Virus record (IMG/VR): IMGVR_UViG_2974607751_000001
Location: 35,533-99,532 of that record
Direction: 5' to 3' (one strand)
From: a virus
Lineage: Duplodnaviria; Heunggongvirae; Uroviricota; Caudoviricetes; Demerecviridae
Length of the DNA stretch: 64,000 nucleotides
Shown: one piece after another, positions 31,543 to 47,741 of the stretch
Numbering within the stretch: the stretch's first letter is position 1
Layout: the number at the start of each line of letters is the position of its first letter
Notes under the pieces: model-generated
What the model was told of the DNA's origin: nothing
The model's input: the letters and a program-made list of their open reading frames with translations, nothing else
The model's database searches: none
Made by a program: the position numbers and the translations under genes

Positions 31543-31576
31543 AATTTTATTAACTGTAACTAAACAAAGGAAATAT

Positions 31577-32521: not shown

Positions 32522-32524
32522 TAG

Positions 32525-32572: not shown

Positions 32573-32584
32573 CTTTTCTGTATT

Positions 32585-32630
32585 TAAGGCAAAAGAAAAG
32601 CCCCTTACCTTTCGGCAGGGGCTTTGTTTT
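32585..32630. terminator. bidirectional terminator
   Basis: aaaagcccct...aggggctttgttttt has U-tracts on both strands. It separates the plus-strand genes from the minus-strand island. Confidence 0.6.
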
Positions 32631-32838
32631 TGGTTTAGAACCATACTCTCGGTGTACAGCAACCACCCATACGGGAGACCAATCTTGACTGAAAATCTAC
32701 TCTAGGGGGCAGGATAAGAGTAGGCTTAAAGGCAAAGGGATTGAACACCGGTATTTGTGTAAACATTGCTGGAGAGCAACAACGTGCTACAGGCATAGGA
32801 CAGCATGACACGGGTTTTCTACAACACATAATTTCTCC

Positions 32839-33273: not shown

Positions 33274-33295
33274 AATGGGCTCCTCCCCTTAATTA

Positions 33296-34336: not shown

Positions 34337-34599
34337 CTCCTAGTATATAGAAAATGTGTGTCTCTTTGATCACTCATCCATAACATATACTTTACACTAC
34401 CCCAGCGAAAATGTCAAGGGGTCTTTAAAAATTGCCCCCGGATTTTTAGTGGGGGTACAAAATCTCTGGGTACTCTCTAAAGTGCCCTCGAATTGTGCTC
34501 CTAATATTTGCTTTCCTGTACTTTTAAAATTAAGTTGATAAATTATGTACTCTATAATATAATAAGTTTATGTATTTTTAAAAGACTATGGAGATACTT

Positions 34600-34833
34600 A
34601 TGATAAAATTCAAAGATCTTGTATTTAAGGATTTAAAGCATGACATAGATGCAATACGTTGTATCCCGTGCTGGGGACAAGGTACTGTTCCTACTTCAAC
34701 GGAAGATAATGTTATTTTAAAATCAGATCCATGCCCTTTCTGTGGAGGATCTGGTATTAATCATCATTACGAAGTAAAACATACAGAAACTATTCATGGT
34801 ACTAAAGTATTTATTATTACTAAAATCAAATAA
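34600..34833 (+). CDS. DnaJ-CR-like zinc-finger mini-protein
   Basis: CIPCWGQG...CPFCGGSG is two CxxCxGxG repeats. Confidence 0.45.
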   Translation: MIKFKDLVFKDLKHDIDAIRCIPCWGQGTVPTSTEDNVILKSDPCPFCGGSGINHHYEVKHTETIHGTKVFIITKIK

Positions 34834-34846
34834 ATTAAAAATTCAA

Positions 34847-34875
34847 TTGCTTAGACGCCAAAATCTCTGTATAAT
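34847..34875 (+). promoter_or_regulatory. PN25-type early promoter
   Basis: Sequence is TTGCTTagacgccaaaatctctgTATAAT, followed by ataaatttgagagaggaatcaaatATG. Confidence 0.55.
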
Positions 34876-34905
34876 ATATTTATAAATTTGAGAGAGGAAT
34901 CAAAT

Positions 34906-35961
34906 ATGATTAAGACTGGTCTAGTAATTGGTAAGTTCGCACCATTAACGCGTGGCCATATTAACTTAATTAACACAGCAGCAACTATGTGTGAACGAGT
35001 TATTGTTGTAGTTAGTCATGATAATCGCTGGCTGGATAAGCAAAACACACGTGATCAGGAAGTCTTACAATTAAAGAACCGTTTACGTTGGTTAGAACAA
35101 ACCTATGCTGATATCGAACATGTATCAGTAGAATATATTATAGAAGATGATATTCCTGAGTATCCTAATGGTTGGCCAGAATATGCTAGAATACTGAATG
35201 ATAATTATGGCCATTTGCCTGAAATTACCATTTTCTCTAGCGAACTAGACTATGATGCAGAATATAAGAAATATCTGCCGAAGTTCGGACATTATATTGT
35301 AGACTCTGATCGGACTCGTGTTCCAATCTCAGCTACTATGATTCGTAATGATCTTATGAAGTATTGGGAATTTCTTCCTAGCGTAGTTCGTAAAGACTAT
35401 GTGCGTAAGGTTGTTATCATTGGTACGGAAAGCTCCGGCAAAACAACTTTAACAAAGTACCTTGCGAAATTATATAATACTTCGTGGGTAGAAGAATATG
35501 GACGTACTTACTGTGAAGTTGATCTAGTTGGTAATGAAGAACTCCTGACTAGCGAGGACTATAATAAAATTGCATTCAGGCACAAAGAGCTAGAGTTTGA
35601 AGCAGAACGTACTGCAAATAAGATCATGTTTGTGGATACCAATGCTTTCATTACTGAATTCTATCACAGGCTCTATGAACATCGTAAAAATCCGGTTGTA
35701 ACAGCTATTGCTAAAGAAGAGCATTATGATTTAGTTATAGTTTTAGCACCTACTGTTAAGTGGGTAGATGATGGTTTACGTATTAACTCCGATCGTTCAA
35801 TTACTTCTGAACTGTTCGAGCAGATGAAGAAAGAATTTCCTAATCAGTTCCCAGAAGGGCGTACTGTGTATATTGACTCCCCGGACTATAAAGTTCGTAT
35901 GGACGAAGCAGTAAACGCAGTAGATTGGCTGATTCATCACTTTAACGTTGGAGAGTTTTAA
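34906..35961 (+). CDS. nadR: NadR-type bifunctional NMN adenylyltransferase / ribosylnicotinamide kinase (lacks the HTH repressor domain)
   Basis: Segments align with E. coli NadR. GKFAPLTRGH matches GKFYPLHTGH. RLRWLEQTY and EYPNGWPEY are shared. Walker A is GTESSGKTTL. The C-terminal block is HYDLVIVLAPTVKWVDDGLR. Confidence 0.85.
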   Translation: MIKTGLVIGKFAPLTRGHINLINTAATMCERVIVVVSHDNRWLDKQNTRDQEVLQLKNRLRWLEQTYADIEHVSVEYIIEDDIPEYPNGWPEYARILNDNYGHLPEITIFSSELDYDAEYKKYLPKFGHYIVDSDRTRVPISATMIRNDLMKYWEFLPSVVRKDYVRKVVIIGTESSGKTTLTKYLAKLYNTSWVEEYGRTYCEVDLVGNEELLTSEDYNKIAFRHKELEFEAERTANKIMFVDTNAFITEFYHRLYEHRKNPVVTAIAKEEHYDLVIVLAPTVKWVDDGLRINSDRSITSELFEQMKKEFPNQFPEGRTVYIDSPDYKVRMDEAVNAVDWLIHHFNVGEF

Positions 35962-35962
35962 T

Positions 35963-36640
35963 ATGACTAACTATCTTGTAAATGACTTTAAAAACTGGAA
36001 ATCTTTGGAATATTTGTGGCTGTTCATAGCAGTTGCCTTTATTAGCTTAGCAAATTATAACGGTACAGCTCTAGACTGGGCTACCGCAATAACCAACGTG
36101 GTTTGTGTTATTCTGGTTGCAAAAGGGCGTGTTTCCAACTATATTTGGGGCTTAGTTGGTGTTCTTACCTATGGTATTACAGCTTTAAATGCAGATCTTT
36201 ATGGTAACGCTGCACTAAACCTGCTATACTACGTTCCTATGCAGTTTTATGGTATGTATTTATGGCATAAAAATAAGCCAAGTAATCTGCCAGACGTTCC
36301 GACTAAGATTCTGACTAAAGCCCAAGCTTTGTTGACTCTAGGGGTTCTAGCAGTAGCTACTTTAGGTTACGGCAGCTTCCTTGCTACCACAGCTGATCCA
36401 TTCCCAATGCTTGACGCATTTACTGCGGTTGGTAGTGTGATTGCTATGTGGCTTATGGTTAAGCAATATGCTGAACAATGGCTGATCTGGATTGCTATTA
36501 ACATTGGTACTGTGTACATTTGGCTTGTAACTGCTCAATCTACAGGTGCATCTTACGCAATCCTAGCAATGTGGCTAGTATTCTTAGGTAACTCTATTCT
36601 TGGAGCTTATAAAGGATACTTTGTACGCGTTAACAAATAA
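35963..36640 (+). CDS. pnuC: PnuC nicotinamide riboside transporter
   Basis: A ~225-aa polytopic membrane protein with NY.WG...V..Y and a W-rich pattern like PnuC. It overlaps the nadR stop codon. Confidence 0.7.
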   Translation: MTNYLVNDFKNWKSLEYLWLFIAVAFISLANYNGTALDWATAITNVVCVILVAKGRVSNYIWGLVGVLTYGITALNADLYGNAALNLLYYVPMQFYGMYLWHKNKPSNLPDVPTKILTKAQALLTLGVLAVATLGYGSFLATTADPFPMLDAFTAVGSVIAMWLMVKQYAEQWLIWIAINIGTVYIWLVTAQSTGASYAILAMWLVFLGNSILGAYKGYFVRVNK

Positions 36641-36687
36641 AGTAGTTATAGCCCTCTAAGCGAGGGCTATTATACAGAAATTTTCAC

Positions 36688-36716
36688 TTGCTTAATATAG
36701 AAAATTTCTGTATAAT
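36688..36716 (+). promoter_or_regulatory. PN25-type early promoter
   Basis: Sequence is TTGCTTaatatagaaaatttctgTATAAT. The leader is identical to the 34.87 kb copy over about 35 nt. Confidence 0.55.
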
Positions 36717-36746
36717 ATATTTATAAATTTGAGAGAGGAATCAAAC

Positions 36747-37043
36747 ATGAAACGCATCGTACTTGCATTGACTCTAGTATCTACTTCTGTATTTGCTGCT
36801 CCACAACAGGAACTTTGTCAAGTTCAAGTTTGTAATAAGCTAGAACGATTTACTCTAGACATTTGGTCACACATTAAAGATAATATGGGTGAACAGTGTT
36901 TTGATATTGTTCTGCCAAAAGAACAAGCTGTTCCTGGTGCTGTTCTCAGCTCAGAATCACGTTGGTGGCAGGGTTCTTCTATCAATCCAACTAAGAAGTC
37001 AGTGACACGTATCAAACAAGTATATCAGTGCAATGTTCAGTAA
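36747..37043 (+). CDS. Secreted small protein (signal peptide)
   Basis: The signal peptide is MKRIVLALTLVSTSVFA-APQ. Confidence 0.5.
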   Translation: MKRIVLALTLVSTSVFAAPQQELCQVQVCNKLERFTLDIWSHIKDNMGEQCFDIVLPKEQAVPGAVLSSESRWWQGSSINPTKKSVTRIKQVYQCNVQ

Positions 37044-37051
37044 AATTTCAC

Positions 37052-37080
37052 TTGCTTAATGCCGAAATTTTCTGTATAAT
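37052..37080 (+). promoter_or_regulatory. PN25-type early promoter driving tRNA genes
   Basis: TTGCTTaatgccgaaattttctgTATAAT is followed directly by two tRNAs. Confidence 0.55.
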
Positions 37081-37094
37081 ATATTCATAAATTT

Positions 37095-37188
37095 GGAAGA
37101 TTAACCCTAAAGGTAAGGGAGCTGTTTGCTAAACAGCCAGTAGCTGTGGAGACACGGTGTGCCAGTTCGAGTCTGGCATCTTCCTCCA
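37095..37188 (+). tRNA. tRNA-Ser (GCT), type II
   Basis: Acceptor ggaagat/atcttcc. Anticodon loop tgctaaa. Long variable arm. CCA is encoded. Confidence 0.6.
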
Positions 37189-37193
37189 AATTT

Positions 37194-37271
37194 GGTTCTC
37201 AAGCTCATTTGGTATGAGCCGTCGCCTCATAAGCGAAAGGTAGGTAGGTTCGAATCCTCCGGGAGCCACCA
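37194..37271 (+). tRNA. tRNA with CAT anticodon (Met/fMet/Ile2), copy 1
   Basis: Acceptor ggttctc/gggagcc with G-U pairs. Anticodon loop ctcataa. Confidence 0.5.
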
Positions 37272-37288
37272 ATTAACTAGGAGACTAT

Positions 37289-37477
37289 ATGTCTAAGTTT
37301 CGAGAGCTTAAACAAGAACTAGAAGAACTCGCCTGCCCTCATTGTTTTGGAAGAGGCGAGAAAGATGATGCAGAACCTGGAGATATATTTTGTAGAACAT
37401 GGACTTGTCCAGTCTGCGAGGGTACTGGGATTAATCCTCTTTATACTGTTTCTCTTTTTGTAGGAGTTGCTAAGTAA
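37289..37477 (+). CDS. DnaJ-CR-like zinc-finger mini-protein (paralog of 34600)
   Basis: The motif is CPHCFGRG...CPVCEGTG. Confidence 0.45.
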   Translation: MSKFRELKQELEELACPHCFGRGEKDDAEPGDIFCRTWTCPVCEGTGINPLYTVSLFVGVAK

Positions 37478-37809
37478 TGGATATCTATACTACTCCAGCA
37501 GTAAACCTGATTGGCTCTTGCCTTGTGCATTTCCGCTTCTTCCAGACGGATGATAGCAAAGAGGAAGTTACACATCCTCTGATGGATTTTCAGATCGAGG
37601 ACTTCTTCCGTGAAGTTCGTAATATTTCTGAAAACTTCTACTACGGTATGGATAAGGAAGATTTCGACATTGAATTTCCTACAATCTCTCGTTATTTCCT
37701 AGAGCAGTCTGATGCTCGGTTTGAGAAGATTGAACATATGGAAGTAGTTTGGGCAATTCAGTTTGAAATTACTGGTTTTGCTCGATACATTCAAGGCTAC
37801 GAACTCTAA
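37477..37809 (+). CDS. hypothetical protein
   Basis: Translationally coupled to the upstream ORF (ATG overlaps its stop). Confidence 0.45.
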   Translation: MDIYTTPAVNLIGSCLVHFRFFQTDDSKEEVTHPLMDFQIEDFFREVRNISENFYYGMDKEDFDIEFPTISRYFLEQSDARFEKIEHMEVVWAIQFEITGFARYIQGYEL

Positions 37810-37818
37810 AGATTACAT

Positions 37819-37895
37819 GGGGGTGTAATCGAATTGGCATAGGTACTGGACTTAAAATTCAGGTTTTGTGGGTTCGAGTCCCACCACCCCTACCA
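37819..37895 (+). tRNA. tRNA with TAA anticodon (Leu) on a type-I scaffold
   Basis: Acceptor gggggtg/cacccct. Anticodon stem ctgga/ttcag with loop cttaaaa. Short 5-nt variable region. CCA is encoded. Confidence 0.45.
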
Positions 37896-38046
37896 AATTA
37901 AGGAAATAAAATGAAAGCTATTAAGAAAGCACTACGTAAATTTATGTACTGTCGTTTTCATAGCATCAAGGCTTCAACTAATGGTACGACTTACGATCGC
38001 TATGATCCTAAGTTTGGCTTACATTCTAAACAACTGGAGAAAACAA

Positions 38047-38253
38047 ATGGCTAATCCTGAAATTACGGCACAACGCTTTATGCTGAAAGGAATTATTGCT
38101 GAAGCAGGCATGACAGAAGAAGTTGCAGATTTTCAAAAGCAATTCCTCAATATTCTCACTCAAGCCAAAGAGCTAGGAGAGAAAGAACATGGCGCGGCTA
38201 TTATGGCAATCACGTTGGTTGGGCTTGATCTGGCTGAAGAATCCGGAGTTTAA
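38047..38253 (+). CDS. hypothetical small protein
   Basis: The RBS is ggagaaaacaaATG. A 45-aa ORF at 37911..38048 lies upstream. Confidence 0.4.
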   Translation: MANPEITAQRFMLKGIIAEAGMTEEVADFQKQFLNILTQAKELGEKEHGAAIMAITLVGLDLAEESGV

Positions 38254-38343
38254 CTCCCCCAAGCAGAAATTTTAAAAATGTACTTGCTTTTTACTTAAGA
38301 TTTCTGCTATAATAGTTATATAAATTGATGAAGGAGTTAACGA

Positions 38344-38619
38344 ATGTCAAAACGTGTTACTGCAACTGGTGTTGAAAGTGCTGTTTGTAAATCCTGGGGT
38401 GGCTGGGAAGGTGAGATTGAATGGCTTTATTTCTACGATGTAGAACTTCTGCCGGAAATCAAAGCTAAATGTGTGGAAGCTGGTATGGCCCCTGATGCAA
38501 AGGCTGATATCGAAATCACCATGACTAAGCTAGAAGGTCGTGTAATTACGCTCAATGATGATTATGAAGAAGTGTTCGAGCTTCCATTCAAACTGAGTGT
38601 CACTCCTAGCTTCGAGTAA
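38344..38619 (+). CDS. hypothetical protein
   Basis: A promoter TTGCTT-18-TATAAT lies at about 38284-38313. Confidence 0.45.
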   Translation: MSKRVTATGVESAVCKSWGGWEGEIEWLYFYDVELLPEIKAKCVEAGMAPDAKADIEITMTKLEGRVITLNDDYEEVFELPFKLSVTPSFE

Positions 38620-38809
38620 CTGATATAGCACTGAGCAAGTTCTTTAAAATTTGACTTGCTCAGTCCTTCAAAACTTGATATAATAGTTATCTAATTTGGA
38701 AAACATATCTGAATGAGAAGTAACTAAGCGAGTTGCTTTTAGGGGTAAAGTCAGGAAATCCTGAAATATTCCACCTTGGGTTTAACCGACTTACTTTTCA
38801 TTCAAATAT

Positions 38810-38900
38810 GTTGGATTAGTATCGTAGAGGTAGCGAAGCAGACTGTAAATCTGCCGACTCGGAAGGGTCTCGGGTGGTTCGACTCCATCATCCAACACCA
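38810..38900 (+). tRNA. tRNA-Tyr (GTA), type II
   Basis: Acceptor gttggat/atccaac. Loop ctgtaaa. Long variable arm. Confidence 0.65.
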
Positions 38901-38907
38901 AATTTAA

Positions 38908-38984
38908 GTCCTGTTAGACAAACTGGTAAAGTCACTACCCTTTCAAGGTAGGATTTGCGGGTTCGATCCCCGCACAGGACGCCA
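38908..38984 (+). tRNA. tRNA-Glu (TTC)
   Basis: Acceptor gtcctgt/acaggac. Anticodon arm ctacc-ctttcaa-ggtag. Confidence 0.65.
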
Positions 38985-38992
38985 ATTTCTGC

Positions 38993-39069
38993 ATTCCTAG
39001 AGTGTTACTGGACAGCATGTCGGTCTCCAAAACCGTACGGTCTAGGTTCGAGTCCTAGTAGGTTTGCCA
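38993..39069 (+). tRNA. degenerate tRNA-Trp-like (CCA anticodon), acceptor stem with U-U mismatches
   Basis: T-arm ctagg-ttcgagt-cctag. Loop ctccaaa. The acceptor pairs poorly. Confidence 0.35.
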
Positions 39070-39075
39070 ATATTT

Positions 39076-39150
39076 GCACCTTTAGCTGAGATGGATTAGC
39101 GCTTGCCTGAAGAGCTTGAGAGGTTCGTTCGATACGAACAGGGTGCACCA
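39076..39150 (+). tRNA. tRNA-Phe-like (GAA), anticodon stem with two U-U mismatches
   Basis: Acceptor gcacctt/agggtgc. T-arm gttcg-ttcgata-cgaac. Loop ctgaaga. Confidence 0.4.
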
Positions 39151-39167
39151 ATTTGGAGGAGATGCTG

Positions 39168-39440
39168 ATGCATCCTAAAAACTTCTTTATTTACTGTGCG
39201 GATAAGTCACTGAAACGCAGAATTAACAAAGTCTATCATTATCGTGCTAGTCAACAGCCTTATGTTTATGCTTTTGACGGAGATTACATTCCACTAGATC
39301 AGTTGGCCTGTGATTACATGGTATTGAAGAACTTTGACGAGACAAAGATCTCAAGCGTTCATAATCTACAGAACCCGTTAACGTGGAAGTATAAGAAGAA
39401 AAAGAAAGGCATCACATTTCTGAAAAATGTAGTTGCTTAA
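39168..39440 (+). CDS. hypothetical protein
   Basis: The RBS is ggaggagatgctgATG. Confidence 0.4.
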   Translation: MHPKNFFIYCADKSLKRRINKVYHYRASQQPYVYAFDGDYIPLDQLACDYMVLKNFDETKISSVHNLQNPLTWKYKKKKKGITFLKNVVA

Positions 39441-39490
39441 CCGCTTAAAGTTCTGTATAATTATTACATAAATTGAACTGGAGAAGCAAC

Positions 39491-39715
39491 ATGACTGAAC
39501 AAGAATTGAAAGAACGTAAGCTGGTAATGCTTCGTTTACTAAACATTTTCTCTGGTATGGATGGTGGTATTGACTTCATGCAACTACGTTGCTTTGTAGA
39601 AGAAGCAGAAGGCGAGGCTATCACTAGAATTCTTAAACATATGGGTTTGTTACTAGATGCTGCTAATGTGGCTACTCAATATAAACTCGAAGATTTACCG
39701 GAGCGTGTTGGATGA
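39491..39715 (+). CDS. hypothetical small protein
   Basis: A promoter lies at about 39428-39460. The RBS is ctggagaagcaacATG. Confidence 0.4.
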   Translation: MTEQELKERKLVMLRLLNIFSGMDGGIDFMQLRCFVEEAEGEAITRILKHMGLLLDAANVATQYKLEDLPERVG

Positions 39716-39903
39716 AAAAGTTAGTTAAATTTAAGTGTTGTGGCTCTGAACATATCTTTACACGTCTACGTGAGTTTAAGATGTGTAAGTGTGGTAAATC
39801 AGGCTATGATGCTGGAGACGGTTATTACTCCCGTACTCTAGGAGACTTCAACGATTTAGAGTTCGTTGATCTCGAAAAACAAGATAAATCGACCGTTGGC
39901 TGA
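39712..39903 (+). CDS. small zinc-ribbon protein
   Basis: The motif is CCGSEH...CKCGKSG. Its 3' end overlaps the next tRNA by about 14 nt. Confidence 0.4.
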   Translation: MKKLVKFKCCGSEHIFTRLREFKMCKCGKSGYDAGDGYYSRTLGDFNDLEFVDLEKQDKSTVG

Positions 39904-39965
39904 ATGGCTTAGGCGGAGGCCTGCAAAACCTCTTTATGTGAGTTCGAATCTCATGCGGTCGTCCA
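39890..39965 (+). tRNA. tRNA-Cys (GCA)
   Basis: Acceptor cgaccgt/gcggtcg. Loop ctgcaaa. T-arm gtgag-ttcgaat-ctcat. Confidence 0.55.
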
Positions 39966-39972
39966 AATTTTA

Positions 39973-40055
39973 GGGTCGTTAGCCAAGCGGTTTGGCGGTG
40001 GACTGTTAATCCATGTCGAAAGACAACGTAGGTTCGAATCCTACACGGCCCGCCA
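39973..40055 (+). tRNA. Type-II-architecture tRNA carrying an Asn anticodon (GTT), discriminator G73
   Basis: Acceptor gggtcgt/acggccc. 3-bp D-stem gcc/ggc. Anticodon arm gtgga-ctgttaa-tccat. 13-nt variable arm gtc-GAAA-gac. Confidence 0.5.
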
Positions 40056-40082
40056 ATTTCATTAACAACTGAGGAAATAGAT

Positions 40083-40268
40083 ATGACAACTCGTGCAATT
40101 GCTCGACTAGAAGCTGACCGTGATAATCTAATTAATAATATTAAGGTCTGGGATCAAGAAATTGAAAACCAAAAACTGACGTTAATACAAGATATGCAGC
40201 AACAGAATGCACGTCGTGAAGCTCTAAAAGAGGTTGAGGAAGCTATCGAAAAACTCAAAGCTGAGTAA
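40083..40268 (+). CDS. hypothetical small coiled-coil protein
   Basis: Short ORF between tRNA blocks. Confidence 0.4.
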   Translation: MTTRAIARLEADRDNLINNIKVWDQEIENQKLTLIQDMQQQNARREALKEVEEAIEKLKAE

Positions 40269-40277
40269 ACAAATTAT

Positions 40278-40354
40278 GCGATCGGGGCTGGCTTGGTAAT
40301 GGTACTCCCCTGTCACGGGAGAGAATGTGGGTTCGAATCCCATCGGTCGCGCCA
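40278..40354 (+). tRNA. tRNA-Asp (GTC)
   Basis: Acceptor gcgatcg/cggtcgc. Loop ctgtcac. Confidence 0.65.
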
Positions 40355-40360
40355 AATAAT

Positions 40361-40436
40361 ACATCCATAGCTCAATGGTTAGAGCTACCGCCTCTTAAGC
40401 GGAGGGTTCTAGGTTCAAGTCCTAGTGGGTGTACCA
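40361..40436 (+). tRNA. tRNA-Lys (CTT)
   Basis: Acceptor acatcca/tgggtgt. D-arm gctcaatggttagagc. Loop ctcttaa. Confidence 0.55.
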
Positions 40437-40442
40437 AATAAA

Positions 40443-40566
40443 CATTCTAGCGTGGTGGAGAGGGGACACCAGCTTGCCGAGGGTAGAAGCTCGTTCGATT
40501 CGAGTGAAAGAATGGTTCTCGTAAATCCGCACAAGTGATAGCAGGTTCAAGTCCTGCCTAGATTGA
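40443..40566 (+). ncRNA. ~120-nt tRNA-like element (acceptor-like ends and T-arm gcagg-ttcaagt-cctgc, but oversize core, no CCA)
   Basis: Ends cattcta/tagattg pair. There is an internal second T-loop-like gctcg-ttcgatt-cgagt. The size fits no standard tRNA class. Confidence 0.3.
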
Positions 40567-40574
40567 CTTATTAT

Positions 40575-40648
40575 GCGTTCGTAGTTAAAAGGTATAATTT
40601 TTGGTTGCCAACCAGAAGTTGAGGGTTCGATTCCCTCCGACCGCACCA
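40575..40648 (+). tRNA. tRNA-Gly (GCC)
   Basis: Acceptor gcgttcg/cgaccgc with one mismatch. Anticodon arm tttgg-ttgccaa-ccaga. Confidence 0.55.
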
Positions 40649-40960
40649 AATTTAGGTTTCTGCTTCCTAGAGAACGGACTCCTAGATAAACAAGGCGATG
40701 AGTTTCCGGCCGGTTCTAGTCGCTGAAAATCCTCCCGACCAGGTAGGTGTAAGTAAACAAAAGTTTACTTATTGAGTAGGTTCCGATAGATCGGCGGGTC
40801 TATTCTGGCATTTAAGAGAAGTCTCGCAAACTTCTTTGTCAGCAGAGCGTTTGAAGCGTGAGGTGGCCTACACAATAAGTAAATTTATTAAAAACTCATT
40901 TGCTATTTCGCTTAATTCTCTATATAATATATTTTATAGAGTGAAGAGAAGGAAAGTTAA

Positions 40961-41470
40961 ATGAAATATAATAAAGGCGAATCAAAAAGTCTATATGAAC
41001 TACTATCTACTGGTTCAGTATCGGGAGATATTACACCAGAAAATATAAGGTTCTTAGTAGAAAATATAACTAATAAAGAATCTTGTGATAAATTTAAGGT
41101 TTCTTGTTCGCCCCATAATTATGCTAGAAAAATAAGGCATTTTGAGCAGATAGTAGCAAGAGATTTATTAAAATTCTACCATAAAGAGAATAAATCGTCA
41201 GGATTAGACGCAGGGTATGTATATTTAATATCTAACCCTGCATGGGAAGAATTTAAAGTAGGGTGTGCTATTGATGTATATGATAGATTAAAATCGTATC
41301 AAACGTATAGCCCTTACAGAGATTATAGCTTAGAGTTTTATTTCTTCTCATTTCAAAGAAGAGAAGATGAATCTAAAGTGCTAGAGTTCTTTAACTCCAC
41401 AGGAGAATGGATTTCTTCCCCAAAAGAAGAAATTATTGCCTTTATGAAAACTTTAGCTAAATATAGATAA
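40961..41470 (+). CDS. T5orf172 / GIY-YIG-like domain protein (putative homing-type endonuclease) inside the tRNA cluster
   Basis: GYVYLISNPAWEEFKVGCAIDVYDRLKSYQT matches the GIY...YIG-like core of the T5orf172 family. Confidence 0.55.
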   Translation: MKYNKGESKSLYELLSTGSVSGDITPENIRFLVENITNKESCDKFKVSCSPHNYARKIRHFEQIVARDLLKFYHKENKSSGLDAGYVYLISNPAWEEFKVGCAIDVYDRLKSYQTYSPYRDYSLEFYFFSFQRREDESKVLEFFNSTGEWISSPKEEIIAFMKTLAKYR

Positions 41471-41546
41471 CAGTGCGTAGCGCAGTTGGTAGCGTGGGAG
41501 CCTTGGATGCTTCGGGTCGCAGGTTCGAGTCCTGCCGCACTGACCA
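41471..41546 (+). tRNA. tRNA-Pro (TGG)
   Basis: Acceptor cagtgcg/cgcactg. Loop cttggat. It starts 1 nt after the ORF stop codon. Confidence 0.65.
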
Positions 41547-41552
41547 AACAAT

Positions 41553-41630
41553 CGCGGGTTAGATCTCTGGTAGAGATCGCTAGTCTCATAAGCTAGAAAG
41601 AGGTAGGTTCGATTCCTGCACCCGCTTCCA
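41553..41630 (+). tRNA. tRNA with CAT anticodon, copy 2, with a 1-72 C-U mismatch (initiator-like top pair)
   Basis: Acceptor cgcgggt/acccgct. Anticodon arm ctagt-ctcataa-gctag. Confidence 0.5.
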
Positions 41631-41818
41631 ATTTAATAGAAGGATTTCGAAATGAAATTATTTCATTTAAAGGTAAGTGATTTACGTTCTAGCAAAGATC
41701 GTAAGAAGTATCCACTAGCTCACTACGGTAAAGATGAAAACGAAGTGATGGCGGAATTTGGTATTAATCATCCTTACTTGAGAGTTTATTCTATTAAAGA
41801 AGTATACATGTATTAAAT

Positions 41819-41897
41819 AGATCGCTAGCTCAATTGGTTTAGCAGCACCCGGCTTTTAACCGGAAGGTTCTGGGTTCGAGTCCCAGGCGGTCTACCA
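41819..41897 (+). tRNA. tRNA-Lys (TTT)
   Basis: Acceptor agatcgc/gcggtct. Anticodon arm ccgg-cttttaa-ccgg. Confidence 0.6.
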
Positions 41898-41914
41898 ATT
41901 TAAAGGAATTTGTT

Positions 41915-42232
41915 ATGAATATTAACAAAGTTCTAGAAACAATATCAGAAATGTCTGGCAGAGCTGGAAAACGCTTTACTGAACTGTGTATTAAAAATCA
42001 AAAAGTACCAGAACATCAGTGTCATTATTGTCGAGACTGTGAACAATACCATGAAATGTGTATGGTTGAAGATCGGGTCTGGGATCAGATAAGAAAAGAG
42101 CAGCCCAAAGATATTGTTCTATGTTTCACTTGTATGGAACGACGCTTAGGACGTAAAATTACTCTTAAAGATCTTAAACATGTTCCGTGTAATGCACCTT
42201 ACTTCATTGGCTTTAGAATGGAGAGATTTTAA
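41915..42232 (+). CDS. Cys-rich zinc-finger protein
   Basis: Motifs include CHYCRDCEQYHEMC...CFTCMERR. Confidence 0.45.
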   Translation: MNINKVLETISEMSGRAGKRFTELCIKNQKVPEHQCHYCRDCEQYHEMCMVEDRVWDQIRKEQPKDIVLCFTCMERRLGRKITLKDLKHVPCNAPYFIGFRMERF

Positions 42233-42365
42233 TGACTATCTGGTTTTATTTAATGAAGCAGAAAATAAAAGACTCCTACGTATTCTCTGCTGATTTTACA
42301 ATAGGTATGTTTATAGCAGGTTTCTGTGAATTTGTAGTTGAAGCCTACATTATAGGTAGATTACT

Positions 42366-42439
42366 GCTCGGTTAGTTTAATGGGAGAACCCCGTCTTTAC
42401 ACGGCGGTTGCGATAGTTCGATTCTATCACCGAGTACCA
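42366..42439 (+). tRNA. tRNA-Val (TAC)
   Basis: Acceptor gctcggt/accgagt. Anticodon arm ccgtc-tttacac-ggcgg. Confidence 0.6.
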
Positions 42440-42458
42440 ATTAACTCAAAATAAGGAA

Positions 42459-42818
42459 TTGCAAATGCAATTATCAAGCAAGGTTCAAGGCTATTTCGGC
42501 CATGTAACAATGGAGTTCGCTATCTCTAAAGGTTGGGACTTCGAACAAGATTTAGCTGAGTTCTACAAAGATATTGATCTGAACGTACCGTACATGGGAC
42601 TCTCTACTGGTCAGGAGATCACAGAAGGCGATGTGTTCAAGGCAAGTCAAGGTGAGGTAACACCTAGTTTTGCCAAGTTCTGGTTAGGTATCACACTGAA
42701 AGAAGATGCACCAGATAGTGGAGTACTAATGACTAGTATGCACTCTGGAAGCTCTGATTACCTTTTCGTTAGTGACGTTAAGGAAATACAAGAAATCTGC
42801 AAAAATGTACTTGCTTGA
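42459..42818 (+). CDS. hypothetical protein
   Basis: The RBS is aaggaattgcaaATG. Confidence 0.45.
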   Translation: MQMQLSSKVQGYFGHVTMEFAISKGWDFEQDLAEFYKDIDLNVPYMGLSTGQEITEGDVFKASQGEVTPSFAKFWLGITLKEDAPDSGVLMTSMHSGSSDYLFVSDVKEIQEICKNVLA

Positions 42819-43082
42819 TGCTTAATTTCTTGTTATAATATTTATATAAATTGATGAGGAGAAATCCTCATCAAAGTTCACTAAGGTATTAGCTCGACCT
42901 AGGACTGGCTGCCAAAAAGCACGATCCCTACGACTCGGGAGAAGTTCTAGATTAGTCCACTAGATTCAGCGGCAACTGAATAGTGTATCGGGTTTGTGAA
43001 GAGCGATTATCCTCTACTGGCTAATGTCTGAGGGTAAGACGCGCACCGAGCTAATAGCCTTAGTAAACTAGAAGGAATATCT

Positions 43083-43346
43083 ATGTTTGATCTGAAAGAT
43101 ATGGCTAAGAAACTAATGTCGCAACGTTATCAACAAAGAACACTCCATAAACGAGTTTCCGATATGAAGAAACGTTGCAATAATGCTAAGTATTATAATA
43201 GTCTTAATAAACTATCTGATGTAGATCTTGCTAAAACTGAAGCAATATATAATCACTTAGTAGTAGAATCTGATATAGTGGATAAAGATATTGCTAGGCT
43301 AGAAGCTCAGATTGTAGCAACTGTTCTTGATATGTATAGAGAATAA
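43083..43346 (+). CDS. hypothetical small protein
   Basis: It follows a ~230-nt structured leader. Confidence 0.4.
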   Translation: MFDLKDMAKKLMSQRYQQRTLHKRVSDMKKRCNNAKYYNSLNKLSDVDLAKTEAIYNHLVVESDIVDKDIARLEAQIVATVLDMYRE

Positions 43347-43355
43347 ATAAATTTT

Positions 43356-43434
43356 GGGGAATGGGTCTGCTTGGAGTGGACACCTCGCTTGCACCGAGGA
43401 TATCAGAAGAGTTCGAATCTCTTATTCTCCACCA
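43356..43434 (+). tRNA. tRNA-Ala (TGC), G3:U70
   Basis: Acceptor ggggaat/attctcc. Anticodon arm cctcg-cttgcac-cgagg. Confidence 0.55.
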
Positions 43435-43440
43435 AAATTC

Positions 43441-43516
43441 GGGGTCATAGGTTATTTGGTTAAACTTACTGCCTTGCAAGCAGTGGAACTCAGTTCAATT
43501 CTGAGTGACTCCACCA
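43441..43516 (+). tRNA. tRNA-Ala (TGC) second copy, G3:U70
   Basis: Acceptor ggggtca/tgactcc. Anticodon arm actgc-cttgcaa-gcagt. Confidence 0.55.
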
Positions 43517-43523
43517 AACAAAT

Positions 43524-43604
43524 GGGGATGTGGCGAAATTGGCAGACGCGCTAGATTTAGGTTCTAGTCTTCGGGTGTGGGTTCGAGTCCCTCCATCCCT
43601 ACCA
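43524..43604 (+). tRNA. tRNA-Leu (TAG)
   Basis: Acceptor ggggatg/catccct. Anticodon arm ctaga-tttaggt-tctag. Extended variable region. Confidence 0.5.
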
Positions 43605-43791
43605 TTTTAAAATAGGATTAATTAATGTTAAAGACGCCAGTAAAACATATTTGGTTAGCTAGAAATAGGGCTACTAATGAGTTTGTCTTTATAGATACAG
43701 GAATGACATATGATCAACGAATATATGATCTTCTGTATTCCGTGTCTGCCGAAGAAGTACACAAATTAATTCTAAAAGATGCAACATAATT

Positions 43792-43884
43792 GGAAGAGCA
43801 AATCGATCTGGTGACGAAAACCGCTTGGAAAGTGGCTGACTTGTGAAAGCAGGCTTGAGAGTTCGAATCTCTCTTCTTCCGCCA
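43792..43884 (+). tRNA. tRNA-Ser (GGA), type II
   Basis: Acceptor ggaagag/ttcttcc. The anticodon arm is like E. coli Ser(GGA) with loop ttggaaa. Long variable arm. Confidence 0.55.
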
Positions 43885-43891
43885 AACAACT

Positions 43892-43981
43892 GGAAGTACG
43901 GGCGTAGTGGTATGCAACTAGTCTTGAAAACTAGCCCGCTGTAGCGATATGGTGATGGTTCGACTCCATGTGCTTCCGCCA
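43892..43981 (+). tRNA. tRNA-Ser (TGA), type II
   Basis: Acceptor ggaagta/tgcttcc. Anticodon arm ctagt-cttgaaa-actag. Confidence 0.55.
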
Positions 43982-44001
43982 ATTAACTATAAGAAAACCT
44001 T

Positions 44002-44175
44002 ATGAGCAAAACAGTTACTGTAACAATGAAAGACGGTGAAAAGTTTAAAGCATGTCTTCATGAAACAGATAATGGGTGGAAGGCTTATTTGCCTCACCTA
44101 GATTCTACTGGTCATGGAATGACACAACGTGAAGCTATTGTTGATGCTTTAAATGAGGCTTCTGCTGGTTTATAA
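44002..44175 (+). CDS. HicB/UPF0150-like small protein (57 aa)
   Basis: MKDGEKFKACLHETDNGWKAYLPHLDSTGHGMTQREAIVDALNEA resembles the HicB antitoxin-like fold. It is below the track size cutoff. Confidence 0.35.
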   Translation: MSKTVTVTMKDGEKFKACLHETDNGWKAYLPHLDSTGHGMTQREAIVDALNEASAGL

Positions 44176-44493
44176 AAATTCTTGAAGTATGCCGGAATCG
44201 GTAGACGGGGCTTCCTAAAGGGCGTAAGGGGAACATCCACTCCTCATAAGATACCCGAAAACGAGGCTGAGATAAATGGTCTATCTCGTGAAGGTTCAAG
44301 TCCTTCTGCTTCTTGATACATCAATGGCTCAAAGAGTAACGGTGCACCTTTCTAGAGAATTTCCTGGGCGAGAATCCAGGTGTAATCAACTAGTTGTTAG
44401 TGTGATGAGTTTCGGAGAGCCGCCACAATTGAAGTCTTTAGAATGGGTATCGCCCTTTAGCCCCTACGAAAGGGATAACTAGAGATTTCAATT

Positions 44494-44570
44494 GTGGCTA
44501 TATCATAATTGGTTAATGATCCTGATTGTGAATCAGGCCTATGTGGATTCGAATTCCACTAGCCACCCCA
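44494..44570 (+). tRNA. tRNA-His (GTG)
   Basis: Acceptor gtggcta/tagccac. Anticodon arm cctga-ttgtgaa-tcagg. Confidence 0.65.
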
Positions 44571-44576
44571 AATATT

Positions 44577-44651
44577 GCGTCCTTATTTCAATGGAAAGAA
44601 TGTAAAGCTACGAACTTTACGATCGGGGTTCGATTCCCTGAGGATGCACCA
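44577..44651 (+). tRNA. tRNA-Arg (ACG) carrying a G3:U70 wobble pair
   Basis: Acceptor gcgtcct/aggatgc. Anticodon arm taaag-ctacgaa-cttta. Confidence 0.55.
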
Positions 44652-44675
44652 ACTAACTTAAACAGGAAATAAAAT

Positions 44676-44876
44676 ATGGCTGATTTCTGCAAAGAATGCT
44701 CTATCGATATGTGGGGCAAAGATACTGGTGATCTTTCTGGTCTGATTACAGAAGCCGAAGTTAAAGAAGGCTACGGTGCTGTTGTAATCTGTGAAGGTTG
44801 TGGCATCATTCGTGTTGATCATAATGGCAAACGTCTAGAAGAACCAGATCCAATCGCCACGGTTCCTGTAGAATAA
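44676..44876 (+). CDS. hypothetical small Cys-containing protein
   Basis: The RBS is acaggaaataaaatATG. Confidence 0.4.
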   Translation: MADFCKECSIDMWGKDTGDLSGLITEAEVKEGYGAVVICEGCGIIRVDHNGKRLEEPDPIATVPVE

Positions 44877-44884
44877 AAAATTAT

Positions 44885-44960
44885 TGGGATGTAGATCAAT
44901 TGGCAGATCATCGGCCTCTGACTCCGAAGGTTCCACGTTCGATCCGTGGCATCCCAGCCA
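44885..44960 (+). tRNA. tRNA-Gln (CTG)
   Basis: Acceptor tgggatg/catccca. Loop ctctgac. Confidence 0.6.
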
Positions 44961-44966
44961 AATACT

Positions 44967-45042
44967 TGGAGAGTAGTGTAACGGTTAGCACAACGGCCTT
45001 TGACTCCGTTAATGGTAGGTTCGATTCCTCCTTCTCCAGCCA
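44967..45042 (+). tRNA. tRNA-Gln (TTG)
   Basis: Acceptor tggagag/ttctcca. Loop ctttgac. Confidence 0.6.
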
Positions 45043-45058
45043 ATTTATGCGTGATTAG

Positions 45059-45133
45059 TTCAGTGGCTAGAATAACTGGCTTCCAACCAGTAGACACGAG
45101 TTCGACTCTCGTATCCCGCACCAATTTAAGGAA
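45059..45133 (+). tRNA. tRNA-Gly (TCC)
   Basis: Acceptor gcgtgat/atcccgc with one mismatch. Anticodon arm actgg-cttccaa-ccagt. Confidence 0.55.
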
Positions 45134-45138
45134 ACGTT

Positions 45139-45375
45139 ATGCACGTTTTTGAGTTTCGTAATAAAAACCCCAATAGACGAGTTTTAATTATTGGTGAAAC
45201 ATATCGAGCTTATGAGCAAGAAGATGGTTCGGTTTTATTAAATGATGAAAAGCAAGGCTATAGCTTTCATCCAGAAGAAACATATGAAGAATTTCGTAAA
45301 CAATTTAGTCTAGACTGGAGAAAGCTAGTTACTAGCAGTTCGTTACCTGCTTCTATCAGTATGAGTTCACTATAA
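45139..45375 (+). CDS. hypothetical small protein
   Basis: Intact ORF between tRNA blocks. Confidence 0.4.
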   Translation: MHVFEFRNKNPNRRVLIIGETYRAYEQEDGSVLLNDEKQGYSFHPEETYEEFRKQFSLDWRKLVTSSSLPASISMSSL

Positions 45376-45549
45376 ATGGCTGATAATCTAAAGCTAAAGG
45401 TAGATAAACAAATGAAGTGCGTTGAGGTTGAGTTAGGCGAAGAACGTTTAAAACTCTCCTTCGAATTTCTACAGCAGTTGGCTATGACAGTAATGTCTGA
45501 TAAGTCTCCTGTATTTGAAAAAGAAATCCCGTTGAAATAACGGGCTAAT

Positions 45550-45636
45550 GCTGGGTTGGCAGAAAGGCTGAATGCACCTGACTTGTAATCAGAAGGAGCA
45601 ATCCCGTTGCAGGTTCGAATCCTGTGCCCAGCACCA
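45550..45636 (+). tRNA. Type-II-architecture tRNA carrying a Thr anticodon (TGT), discriminator A73
   Basis: Acceptor gctgggt/gcccagc. 3-bp D-stem gca/tgc with an 11-nt D-loop. Anticodon arm ctga-cttgtaa-tcag. 15-nt variable arm gga-GCAA-tcc. Confidence 0.5.
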
Positions 45637-45651
45637 ATTTAAGGAAACCTA

Positions 45652-46074
45652 ATGCAAGAAACGTTATACGAAAGGCTTGGGGGCATATTTGCTATAGCGG
45701 CAATAGTAAATCATTTTAGTGATGCACTTATCACTAATCCAGTAGTAGGACAGCATTCTGCTAATAAAGCTCTAGCTGATTGGCATAACAATAGTTTAGC
45801 TAATTTACCTGGTCTTAAATGGATGCGTACTCTTTGGGTTGCTAGTATTACAGGTGGGCCATACACTTATGTTGGAACTAAACCTGATGCTTCTCCTCTA
45901 GGATTACAGAATGCACATGCCAGATTTAAGATTACCTCAGAAGAGTTTGATGCTGTTGCGGGCGAGCTATTAAAAACTCTAAAGATTGGTAAAGTTGGTG
46001 ATAAAGAAATTCAGGAAGTTATGGGTGCATTTGCTGCTCATAAGAATGAAGTTATTGCTGGTTCTAAAATTTAA
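45652..46074 (+). CDS. Truncated (2/2) hemoglobin
   Basis: N-terminal LYERLGG..AIAAIV, a second Gly-Gly SITGGPY and a proximal-His region NAHARFKITSEEFDA follow the trHb layout. The RBS is aaggaaacctaATG. Confidence 0.6.
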   Translation: MQETLYERLGGIFAIAAIVNHFSDALITNPVVGQHSANKALADWHNNSLANLPGLKWMRTLWVASITGGPYTYVGTKPDASPLGLQNAHARFKITSEEFDAVAGELLKTLKIGKVGDKEIQEVMGAFAAHKNEVIAGSKI

Positions 46075-46141
46075 AAATTCATTTGCCTTCTCTCTTATTT
46101 CTTGTTATAATATTTATATAAATTAATGAGAGGGAAACCAA

Positions 46142-46435
46142 ATGAAACGTTATCTTTCTGTCGTATTCCAAACAGGTGGCCAACGCTACACTTACGAATT
46201 TCCTGAGTCTTGGAAAATAAAAGAAGGCGATCAAGTTGTTGTACTAACTCCTCGTGAAGGCTTCAAAGTAGTAACGGTTAAACAAGTATTTCCAAAAGAT
46301 CACGAACCATCTAAGTCTATTCAGTACAAGATGATTCACGGTCTGGTACGAAAAGTACCTAGAACAGAAGTCGAAGTAGATAAAACTGGGGAAGCTAAAT
46401 ACCAGTATACCTCTTACTTAGACGAAATGATGTAA
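46142..46435 (+). CDS. hypothetical protein
   Basis: A PN25-type promoter lies at about 46085-46113. Confidence 0.45.
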   Translation: MKRYLSVVFQTGGQRYTYEFPESWKIKEGDQVVVLTPREGFKVVTVKQVFPKDHEPSKSIQYKMIHGLVRKVPRTEVEVDKTGEAKYQYTSYLDEMM

Positions 46436-46436
46436 T

Positions 46437-46512
46437 GCTCTGATAGTTCAACAGGTTAGAACAGACGACCGATAATCGTCAAATCTTGGTTCGATCCCAA
46501 GTCGGAGTACCA
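46437..46512 (+). tRNA. tRNA-Ile (GAT)
   Basis: Acceptor gctctga/tcggagt. Anticodon arm gacga-ccgataa-tcgtc. Confidence 0.55.
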
Positions 46513-46518
46513 AATTAT

Positions 46519-46594
46519 AGTTAGTTGGCAGAGTGGTTATGCACCTCCTTCATACGGAGCGACTACAGTGGTTCAAATCCACTACTAACTACCA
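46519..46594 (+). tRNA. tRNA with CAT anticodon, copy 3
   Basis: Acceptor agttagt/actaact. Anticodon arm ctcc-ttcatac-ggag. Confidence 0.55.
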
Positions 46595-46997
46595 AACATG
46601 CAGTGAGCTTCGGGAGAAGCAGCGCGGTGACACTATAAGGTCTAAGTGCGAAAAGCTGTGATGAGAAGAGAGTCCACATTCTATAAATGGCCGGGCGTGA
46701 CAGCAGGAAGTAGACTGCAACTCCATGCTATCCAGGAGTCTAAATGTAGAAGCTAAGACTTTAGATAGTCATTGTCTTAGCGTGAGCAATCACGTAGTTG
46801 CAACAGACCTGGAAGATCGCAACGTTAAAATCAAAGTTCCAGTGCTTATTTATCTAATCGAGACCATCAATCTCACCGGAACGCTAGCACCCCAACAGTA
46901 GCTAGTGATTAGATAGTAAGCAAGCCTGCCTTCCAGTTTTTATCTTGCTTCTGGGTTAACAAAAAGCTGAGCCAAATTCTAACATCAGGGAGATCTA

Positions 46998-47366
46998 ATG
47001 AAAGCATATCAAAGTCTTAAGTCTGGCGTAATTAACATTGTTCATAACAATCAGATCATTCAACTATATTCTAAAGATGGTGAACTTAAACAGAAAGTTC
47101 TAGTCGAAGATCTAGAAGGTATCACACCTCACTTTGACCCTGAGGCCTTTCGCATTGTAGATGTGGAAGTGGTTCCTCAAGTCGAGGGTGGTCAGCACCT
47201 AAATGTCAATGTGTTAAGCCGTGATCAGCTTTTGGATGCGCAGAAACATCCTGAAAAATATCCTCAGTTGACCATCCGTGTCTCTGGCTATGCTGTTCGA
47301 TTTAACGCATTGACGCGTGAACAACAGAACGACGTTATTAGTCGTACATTTACTCAGGCGATATAA
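46998..47366 (+). CDS. grcA: GrcA/YfiD-like autonomous glycyl radical cofactor
   Basis: The C-terminus [56 protein letters not shown] is near-identical to the E. coli GrcA/PFL C-terminal glycyl radical domain, including RVSGY. Confidence 0.8.
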
Positions 47367-47447: not shown

Positions 47448-47741
47448 GTGGATCGAGCATTAAGACGCCATCACCGGCAACGTGTGAAAAACAATCGCAA
47501 GAAGTATTGGACAGTCTTCCCACAAGAAGAAAGTCCTAAGCGATTAGGCATTATCACTACCACTCCTTGCATCTGTTCTTGTTGGATGTGTGGGAATCCT
47601 CGCAAGTACTATAAGAATAGTAAAGCAGGCATGAAAATCTCGGAGATTAAAAAGATGGATGCAATGATCTTAGGTATCGGATATGGCGAAGGTATTTCAA
47701 ATGATGAATTTGATGGCTTCGTAGGTTTCGGAGAAGGTTAA
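47448..47741 (+). CDS. Cys-rich hypothetical protein (GTG start)
   Basis: The RBS is aggagaaatgtGTG. A terminator follows. Confidence 0.4.
   Translation: MDRALRRHHRQRVKNNRKKYWTVFPQEESPKRLGIITTTPCICSCWMCGNPRKYYKNSKAGMKISEIKKMDAMILGIGYGEGISNDEFDGFVGFGEG

Follow-up and report, generated by a model that had tools for sequence, protein, structure and literature searches.

Salmonella phage STG2 encodes a small protein, STG2_101, that is very probably a phage autonomous glycyl-radical cofactor, a predicted spare part for enzymes of the pyruvate formate-lyase (PFL) type. Rescue of host PFL, which a reading made from the sequence alone had put forward as one use of a phage copy, would be the best-supported function of the protein, by homology to its bacteriophage T4 counterpart Y06I. 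The gene is a 122-codon ORF with an ATG start that occupies positions 46998–47366 on the plus strand of the window (the whole stretch of 64,000 nucleotides that was analysed, in which a coordinate of the source record is converted by subtracting 35532). A 4-kb query around the gene is 99.9% identical to the genome of STG2 (MK005300), a T5-like siphovirus of the family Demerecviridae, genus Epseptimavirus. Identification of the coding sequence draws on the ORF itself, on matches to PF01228, phrog_1209 and PDB entries, on the T5.056 and T4 vs.6 orthologues and on dN/dS. Direct reading of the sequence places a Shine–Dalgarno-like AGGGAG at 46987–46992 (plus strand), 5 nt before the ATG, and a ribosome binding site is annotated at the equivalent position in the record of Salmonella phage 5. 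The protein can be divided into an N-terminal half of phage type (residues 1–60, 46998–47177, plus strand), delimited by alignments, an AF2 model and dN/dS, and a glycyl-radical domain (residues 61–122, 47178–47363, plus strand), delimited by phmmer, Foldseek, invariant positions and dN/dS.

The glycyl-radical domain is matched by the Pfam Gly_radical profile (PF01228) at E=4e-18, and phmmer searches of the PDB retrieve Escherichia coli YfiD/GrcA (6owr) at 2e-29 and PflB (1h16, 2pfl) at 1.6e-26, a likeness that, judged by these scores, far exceeds chance. The phmmer alignment spans PflB 698–758 and YfiD 53–126, and residues 61–122 of STG2_101 are the counterpart of PflB 698–759 and YfiD 66–127. 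Aligned without gaps, the last 62 residues are identical to those of TdcE at 52 positions, to GrcA at 49 and to PflB at 47 (also 47/62 for the radical domain of T4 Vs.6), and over residues 51–122 BLASTP gives 74% identity to GrcA. Gly97, encoded by the GGC codon at 47286–47288 (plus strand), aligns with PflB Gly734 and is the predicted radical glycine, within the loop RVSGYAV (residues 94–100). Whether 18 or 51 homologues are aligned, it falls inside an invariant block, and 32–38 positions of the radical domain, together with RVSGYAV, are invariant across phage and bacterial sequences. The sequence-only reading of this ORF as having a PFL/GrcA-type C-terminus with an RVSGY motif is thus borne out, and realignment to GrcA and PflB confirms that the context of the radical glycine is present.

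The NCBIfam equivalog for GrcA (TIGR04365) gives STG2_101 118.3 bits, against a cut-off of 170, and aligns with residues 54–121 only. The same cut-off is missed by the validated T4 protein Vs.6 (151.1 bits) and by three further phage versions (132–141 bits), and because Vs.6 also fails, the 170-bit threshold divides bacterial from phage sequences and does not divide them by function. The PFL/TdcE model TIGR01255 is matched solely at profile positions 683–743 of 744, with 84 bits against a cut-off of 994. STG2_101 is a small stand-alone protein of 122 amino acids without a catalytic barrel; its ORF is furnished with a separate ribosome binding site and ends in a stop codon of its own, and there are no cysteines in its translation. 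The sequence evidence supports a stand-alone glycyl-radical ‘spare part’ of the GrcA/YfiD type; the protein cannot act alone as a formate-lyase because it is without the 10-stranded barrel and the catalytic Cys418/Cys419 pair. The names ‘pyruvate formate-lyase’, ‘acetyltransferase-related’ and ‘ribonucleotide reductase subunit’, all of which have been deposited for this gene, are misnomers.

The N-terminal half is clearly homologous to the N-terminus of T4 Vs.6 in pairwise alignment, the two sharing an MKAYQ start and weak similarity. Before residue 51, BLASTP produces no alignment of STG2_101 with YfiD/GrcA; a multiple alignment sets MKAYQ opposite MITGIQ, with weak column conservation. The AF2 model of STG2_101 (mean pLDDT 77) predicts a beta-rich N-terminal half with strands in residues 2–36 and 51–54 (pLDDT 84–89), and places Gly97 between the strands of a predicted hairpin (92–95/98–101) with two flanking helices. 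When this model is submitted to Foldseek, the NMR structure of YfiD (6owr) ranks first and the crystal structure of PFL (2pfl) is among the top matches. In YfiD, residues 61–127 duplicate PFL 693–759, and the disordered residues 1–60 are required for binding to cleaved PFL and for efficient installation of the radical (PMC8683613). By analogy, residues 1–60 of STG2_101 may be the part required for cleaved-PFL binding and efficient activation.

Homologues of the gene are widespread in phages. A tblastn search found one in 1,584 of 50,697 phage records: about 440 of these are T5-like phages, with at least 80% identity, and more than 1,100 are other phages, mostly T4-like ones that infect Escherichia, Klebsiella, Shigella, Yersinia, Cronobacter and Aeromonas, where full-length identity is ~50%. 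Carriers also include jumbo phages. The family phrog_1209 matches STG2_101 at E=7e-47 from end to end (residues 1–122 on profile positions 1–121 of 121). Many phage records already use the annotation ‘autonomous glycyl radical cofactor’, and a protein of phage beppo that is identical to STG2_101 bears the name ‘glycyl radical cofactor’. In a comparison of six T5-like phages, dN/dS for the gene lies between 0.04 and 0.23 overall, with dS up to 0.7; codons 61–122 taken separately give 0.00–0.05 and the N-terminal half 0.05–0.5. Both halves of the gene are under strong purifying selection.

The grcA-like gene stands at the downstream end of a cluster of 29 tRNA genes in STG2. Immediately upstream lie genes for tRNA-Ile and tRNA-Met and a conserved 58-aa ORF (phrog_19031), the last of these within the 400-nt spacer at 46595–46997. 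The T5 orthologue, T5.056 (named ‘putative acetyltransferase-related protein’), starts 13 nt past tRNA-Met; the annotated promoter P11 precedes it, and T5.055 and a terminator follow. In STG2 the position of P11 is occupied by a promoter-like, TG-extended TTGCCT-17-TATAAT at 46083–46111 (plus strand), found by a consensus scan, and this sequence is conserved with T5 and Bas26. As the counts from promoter and terminator scans did not exceed shuffled expectation, we used them only where they coincided with T5 P11. The site at 46083–46111 likely starts a transcription unit consisting of a 97-aa ORF, tRNA-Ile, tRNA-Met, the 58-aa ORF, the grcA-like gene and a further 97-aa ORF. Synteny with T5 suggests that the grcA-like gene would be transcribed early and together with the tRNA genes.

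Two other features of the locus were considered and set aside. A structured RNA or riboswitch in the spacer is not indicated by Rfam, which in E-value mode reports two tRNAs only. The 97-aa Cys-rich ORF directly downstream of the grcA-like gene (47448–47741; phrog_4499) was rejected as a conserved partner of it: the matches listed for phrog_4499 come from T5-like phages and from some phages of Erwinia, Rhizobium and Vibrio, and no T4-like phage is included. It also contains a match to CxxxCxxC, the motif of radical-SAM activases, but is too small to be one.

STG2 encodes no activase of its own. A tblastn search of the whole STG2 genome with T4 NrdG gave a best E-value of 0.3, and when every stop-to-stop ORF of at least 50 aa was scanned for CxxxCxxC, no credible radical-SAM activase emerged. 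Because the phage encodes no such enzyme, it must use the host activases PflA and NrdG. T5-like phages present two glycyl-radical proteins and no activase.

The second of these proteins is the class III ribonucleotide reductase NrdD, which the sequence-only reading had correctly located at 15269–17143. The gene lies on the minus strand, 30 kb from the plus-strand grcA-like gene, and its 624-aa product matches Pfam NRDD at 2.5e-172, Pfam Gly_radical and, among PDB entries, T4 NrdD (1h78) at 1e-175. The formate that PFL makes is what NrdD would consume, formate being described as the hydrogen donor of the E. coli class III enzyme (Mulliez 1995), and this offers a testable reason for phages to carry grcA and nrdD together.

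On these grounds the following mechanism can be proposed for STG2_101 as a spare part for PFL. Its gene, placed where the tRNA cluster ends, would be expressed at an early stage of infection, and Gly97 would lose a hydrogen to the host radical-SAM activase PflA; the heptapeptide loop in which it lies, RVSGYAV, is reportedly a minimal substrate of PFL-AE (Frey 1994; Vey 2008). Cleavage at Gly734 by traces of O2 would damage the PflB of the host, or the paralogue TdcE, and STG2_101 would then dock on what is left of the enzyme: the last 62 residues of the phage protein would stand in for the radical domain that had been cut off, and the N-terminal half would aid binding. Conversion of pyruvate to acetyl-CoA and formate could thus resume. 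Production of fermentative ATP and acetyl-CoA would be sustained by the phage copy, and a supply of formate would be kept up for phage NrdD as it makes dNTPs in the anoxic or micro-oxic gut. A bioRxiv preprint (10.64898/2026.04.02.716235) describes early degradation of host DNA by T5; with the host DNA destroyed, we infer that induction of host grcA and resynthesis of PflB would come to a stop.

How far grcA and nrdD are linked in phages was examined at 80 IMG/VR loci and in one RefSeq phage, where the surroundings of the grcA-like gene were scanned for NrdD and NrdG to a distance of 10 kb. Within that distance nrdD was present at 0 of the 27 T5-like loci and at no sampled T4-like locus except a 235-kb contig. 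On that contig nrdB, nrdD, nrdG, the grcA-like gene and a glutaredoxin gene follow one another with junctions that overlap or measure 2 nt. A gap of 10 nt separates nrdD from a downstream grcA in Aeromonas phage BUCT695 (Grimontviridae). A jumbo contig of ~346 kb has the order nrdD, grcA-like gene, DUF4326, nrdG, and two more have nrdD, the grcA-like gene and nrdG within ~4 kb, making three jumbo contigs of ~350 kb each. Across the phage collection the grcA-like gene is recorded 1,584 times against 2,924 for nrdD, and for each host genus listed in both tallies its count is never above that of nrdD. The operon context in these other phages supports a functional link of some kind between grcA and NrdD.

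The most direct form of such a link, in which STG2_101 would itself be a spare part for phage NrdD and supply a new radical loop after O2 cleavage at Gly594, was also raised in the sequence-only reading, and we regard it as very improbable. The same cleavage by O2 hits all glycyl-radical enzymes, in BUCT695, the three jumbo contigs and the 235-kb contig nrdD and nrdG share an operon with the grcA-like gene, and reviews have left open whether spare parts exist beyond PFL (PMC8683613, PMC13450708). STG2_101 nonetheless has no detectable similarity to STG2 NrdD by BLASTP (E=16). Gly594 lies in RRVCGYLG, at a site made up of a Cys4 zinc ribbon and then RRVCGYLGNP; the segment after the ribbon, RRVCGYLGNPGARPFN, is unlike the radical region of STG2_101, from which an NrdD-type radical domain (Cys4 zinc ribbon, RxCGY-type loop, NrdD tail) is absent. 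Even in the phages that have grcA within an nrd operon, the GrcA radical domain tracks PFL, with 47–51 of 62 residues identical to that of STG2 and 47–50 of 62 to E. coli PflB, whereas the radical-domain tails of NrdD from the same phages are identical to that of STG2 at only 31–35 of 62 positions. With the GrcA domain PFL-like and the NrdD tails variable, the sequence constraint would therefore come from PFL, and the T4 orthologue Y06I is described as working on PFL (Wagner et al. 2001, as presented in PMC8683613). The earlier suggestion that cleaved NrdD is complemented thus finds no support, and the linkage suggests instead a metabolic coupling through formate. If that coupling holds, grcA would exemplify a phage that shields an enzyme of its host so as to sustain phage nucleotide synthesis in the micro-oxic gut.

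One of the remaining alternatives is a variant of the spare-part reading, in which TdcE (2-ketobutyrate formate-lyase/PFL) takes the place of PflB as the main enzyme to which the T5-type protein is tuned. The last 62 residues are indeed closest to TdcE, and between the radical glycine and the C-terminus a manual count gives 24/26 identities with TdcE, 20/26 with PflB and 19/26 with GrcA; the best DNA matches in E. coli are likewise pflB and tdcE (~75.7%). The segment is short, however, with few differences, and the part before the glycine carries a GrcA-like KHPEKYPQ. TdcE is a minor enzyme, induced by threonine, and seems a weaker target for a gene that is nearly universal in T5-like phages, nor are PflB and TdcE mutually exclusive as targets; we consider tuning to TdcE improbable. 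A protein that displays the exact loop recognised by PflA, and that would be abundant early, could conceivably also be a decoy or sink that titrates PflA or blocks cleaved PFL, redirecting the pyruvate metabolism of the host. To this we attach a very slight probability: the T4 orthologue restores PFL activity in the account given of Wagner et al. 2001 in PMC8683613, and conservation extends over the whole 62-residue domain and not just the loop recognised by PflA, more than a decoy would call for. Finally, DNA similarity to host genes confined to the 3′ half, together with the ‘pyruvate formate-lyase’ misannotation in several records, might suggest a functionless, decaying fragment of a captured host pflB or tdcE 3′ end. 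Against such decay stand the uninterrupted ORF and the ribosome binding site in front of it, the low dN/dS at appreciable dS, the retention of the gene in ~1,580 phage records of several families and the conservation of a phage-specific N-terminal half between T5-like and T4-like phages; the selection analysis effectively refutes it, and its probability is next to nil.

A further gene in the neighbourhood may bear on the chemistry of radicals. Some 0.9 kb upstream of the grcA-like gene, on the same strand, a 140-aa ORF at 45652–46074 encodes a group-1 truncated haemoglobin. Pfam Bac_globin matches it with 29.9 bits (cut-off 21), and its best sequence matches in the PDB are group-1 truncated haemoglobins at ~1e-7 (8tls and relatives, a set that the fold search identifies as Shewanella benthica trHbN). 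The AF2 model, for which one of five models is confident, superposes on 8ugz with a TM score of 0.91 and also matches Mycobacterium tuberculosis HbN. His89, which we take from comparison with HbN to be the candidate proximal histidine, is invariant among the relatives. The ORF has no PHROG family, and tblastn found it in no phage record other than STG2. Outside the phage record collection just two close clusters were found, at 91–93% identity; for one of them, five contigs carry the gene, the longest 112 kb, and the one contig shown has the same synteny. The next relatives are metagenomic proteins at 60–66% identity, and the few that are named are group 1 truncated hemoglobins from Limnocylindria and Acidimicrobiia MAGs, the former a group that we assume to belong to the Chloroflexota. 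The globin insert measures exactly 432 nt, is flanked by a 6-nt repeat, ATTTAA, and is absent from T5 and from phage GreteKellenberger. NO destroys the glycyl radicals of PFL and of class III ribonucleotide reductase as well as the Fe–S clusters of the activases (PMC11888291). The STG2 globin could act as a scavenger of O2 or NO, each of them destructive to glycyl radicals and to their activases, and a connection between globin and spare part is conceivable.

Taken further, grcA might belong to a phage strategy that keeps anaerobic dNTP synthesis going under traces of O2 or NO, with formate secured through the repair of PFL and, in the STG2 sub-lineage, with the globin perhaps as reinforcement. 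We put this forward as an unlikely but not negligible proposal; it would account for the placing of grcA within nrdD–nrdG operons in three further phage lineages. In a more radical form, which the sequences make unlikely, STG2_101 would also service NrdD directly, and glycyl-radical enzymes beyond PFL would then have their first spare part.

The nearest known system is that of T4, and phage grcA is on that account an already recognised kind of auxiliary gene, with a biochemically characterised orthologue. The view taken in the sequence-only reading, that the function of a GrcA gene in a phage was untested, does not hold: as related in PMC8683613, Wagner et al. 2001 (BBRC 285:456) found that both T4 Y06I and YfiD receive a radical from PFL-AE and reconstitute PFL fragmented by oxygen, and YfiD and Y06I are the only validated spare parts (Andorfer et al. 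2021; PMC8683613). Our literature search returned no study of the role of the gene during infection and none of the T5-type protein. T4 Vs.6 (Y06I, NP_049730) has 120 amino acids to the 122 of STG2_101 and is 51% identical to it over the full length, MKAYQ included; the RVSGYAV loops are identical, phrog_1209 is matched by both proteins, and STG2 and T4 are both virulent enterobacterial phages that encode NrdD. They differ in that T4 has its own NrdG and STG2 encodes no activase, and in context, the T4 gene lying in the vs region and the T5-like gene at the end of the tRNA cluster.

The origin of the radical domain also differs between the two phages. Nucleotides 179–363 of T4 vs.6 are 98.4% identical to E. 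coli grcA, with 59 of 62 amino acids shared, so Vs.6 is in effect a chimera whose host domain, to judge from this identity, was recently acquired or converted. The STG2 gene, unlike that of T4, has ~75.7% nucleotide identity to E. coli pflB and tdcE, and its 5′ half has no DNA similarity to E. coli genes; a recent transfer from the host was on this basis rejected for STG2. The radical domain of STG2 and T5 is, as its divergence indicates, an old and independently evolving version with a predicted competence for the same reaction. Because T4 carries essentially the host's own domain, the T4 result transfers to STG2_101 by homology only, and since the one phage protein that has been tested has a host-derived domain, the diverged T5-type domain makes a fair new object for such a test.

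The bacterial proteins complete the comparison. E. coli and Salmonella GrcA resemble STG2_101 as stand-alone proteins of ~14 kDa whose C-terminal half copies PflB 693–759, and differ from it at the N-terminus, which in YfiD (residues 1–60) is disordered by NMR and in STG2_101 is predicted by modelling to form a beta-sheet. With PflB and TdcE, STG2_101 shares an invariant radical glycine and flanking residues, and its radical domain departs from that of PflB at 15 of 62 positions and from that of GrcA at 13.

In three lineages of phages that are not related to T5, the operon for class III ribonucleotide reductase (RNR) itself contains a grcA-like gene. Such operons are found in Aeromonas phage BUCT695 (L014, 14471-16948), on three jumbo-phage contigs (L042, 8039-11082; L043; L045) and on a 235-kb contig (L061, 6383-10517), and the gene orders seen are nrdD-grcA, nrdD-grcA-DUF4326-nrdG and nrdB-nrdD-nrdG-grcA-glutaredoxin. 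Despite the class III RNR context, the operon-borne grcA-like genes retain a PFL-like radical domain. In STG2, the genes adjoining nrdD encode a Sir2-family protein (window 13671-14513, minus strand), a HAD_SAK_2 domain protein (12794-13333, minus) and two side-by-side DUF7415 paralogues (11943-12791, minus), with the genes for PhoH and class I RNR (nrdA and nrdB) following on the opposite strand, together at 17485-22196.

The region upstream of the STG2 grcA-like gene is occupied by a cluster of 29 tRNA genes (window 31469-46594, plus strand), which includes three copies of tRNA-Met(CAT) and a duplicated tRNA-Ala(TGC) and has small conserved ORFs (DUF7293, phrog_4760, phrog_19031 and others) scattered through it. 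The 87-nt tRNA-Thr(UGU) (45550-45636, plus) has a long variable arm, in which 11 nt are inserted compared with the Rfam tRNA model; reading the sequence by eye gives G1-C72, C2-G71 and A73. Its shape is type-II-like, which is unusual for a tRNA-Thr. This 87-nt allele is common to ~100 T5-like records, whereas T5 and phage GreteKellenberger have an unrelated 75-nt tRNA-Thr in its place.

A 140 amino acid ORF (window 45652-46074, plus strand) encodes a group-1 truncated haemoglobin: it matches Pfam Bac_globin, its fold matches trHbN of S. benthica and HbN of M. tuberculosis, and the candidate proximal histidine, His89, is invariant. The ORF lies on a precise insertion of 432 nt (45643-46074) flanked by the repeat ATTTAA, with the grcA-like gene 0.9 kb downstream. 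The globin belongs to no PHROG family, and STG2 is its sole carrier among 50,697 phage records. Two close clusters turned up outside that collection, and the gene of one cluster sits on five contigs, of which the longest measures 112 kb. Next nearest are metagenomic proteins (60-66% identity), those with names coming from Limnocylindria and Acidimicrobiia MAGs.

Immediately downstream of the grcA-like gene is a 97 amino acid ORF with a GTG start (window 47448-47741, plus strand) that belongs to phrog_4499, a family of unknown function, and contains the Cys cluster TPCICSCWMCGNPR. T5-like phages have it, as do phages of Erwinia, Rhizobium and Vibrio (44-47% identity), and the matches listed include no T4-like phage.

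T4 has its own gene of this type, vs.6 (L002, 7558-7920, minus strand). The DNA of its 3' half (nt 179-363) is 98.4% identical to E. coli grcA in every one of the 5,426 E. coli genomes, while the 5' half has no match. This pattern suggests that vs.6 has recently recombined with the host gene or undergone gene conversion by it.

STG2 has two glycyl-radical proteins of its own: NrdD, encoded at window 15269-17143 (minus strand), and the GrcA-like protein. However, no NrdG/PflA-type radical-SAM activase was found in the whole STG2 genome (the window together with L006 and L007, which cover the remainder). Both proteins must depend on host activases, in contrast to the situation in T4, which encodes an activase of this type itself.
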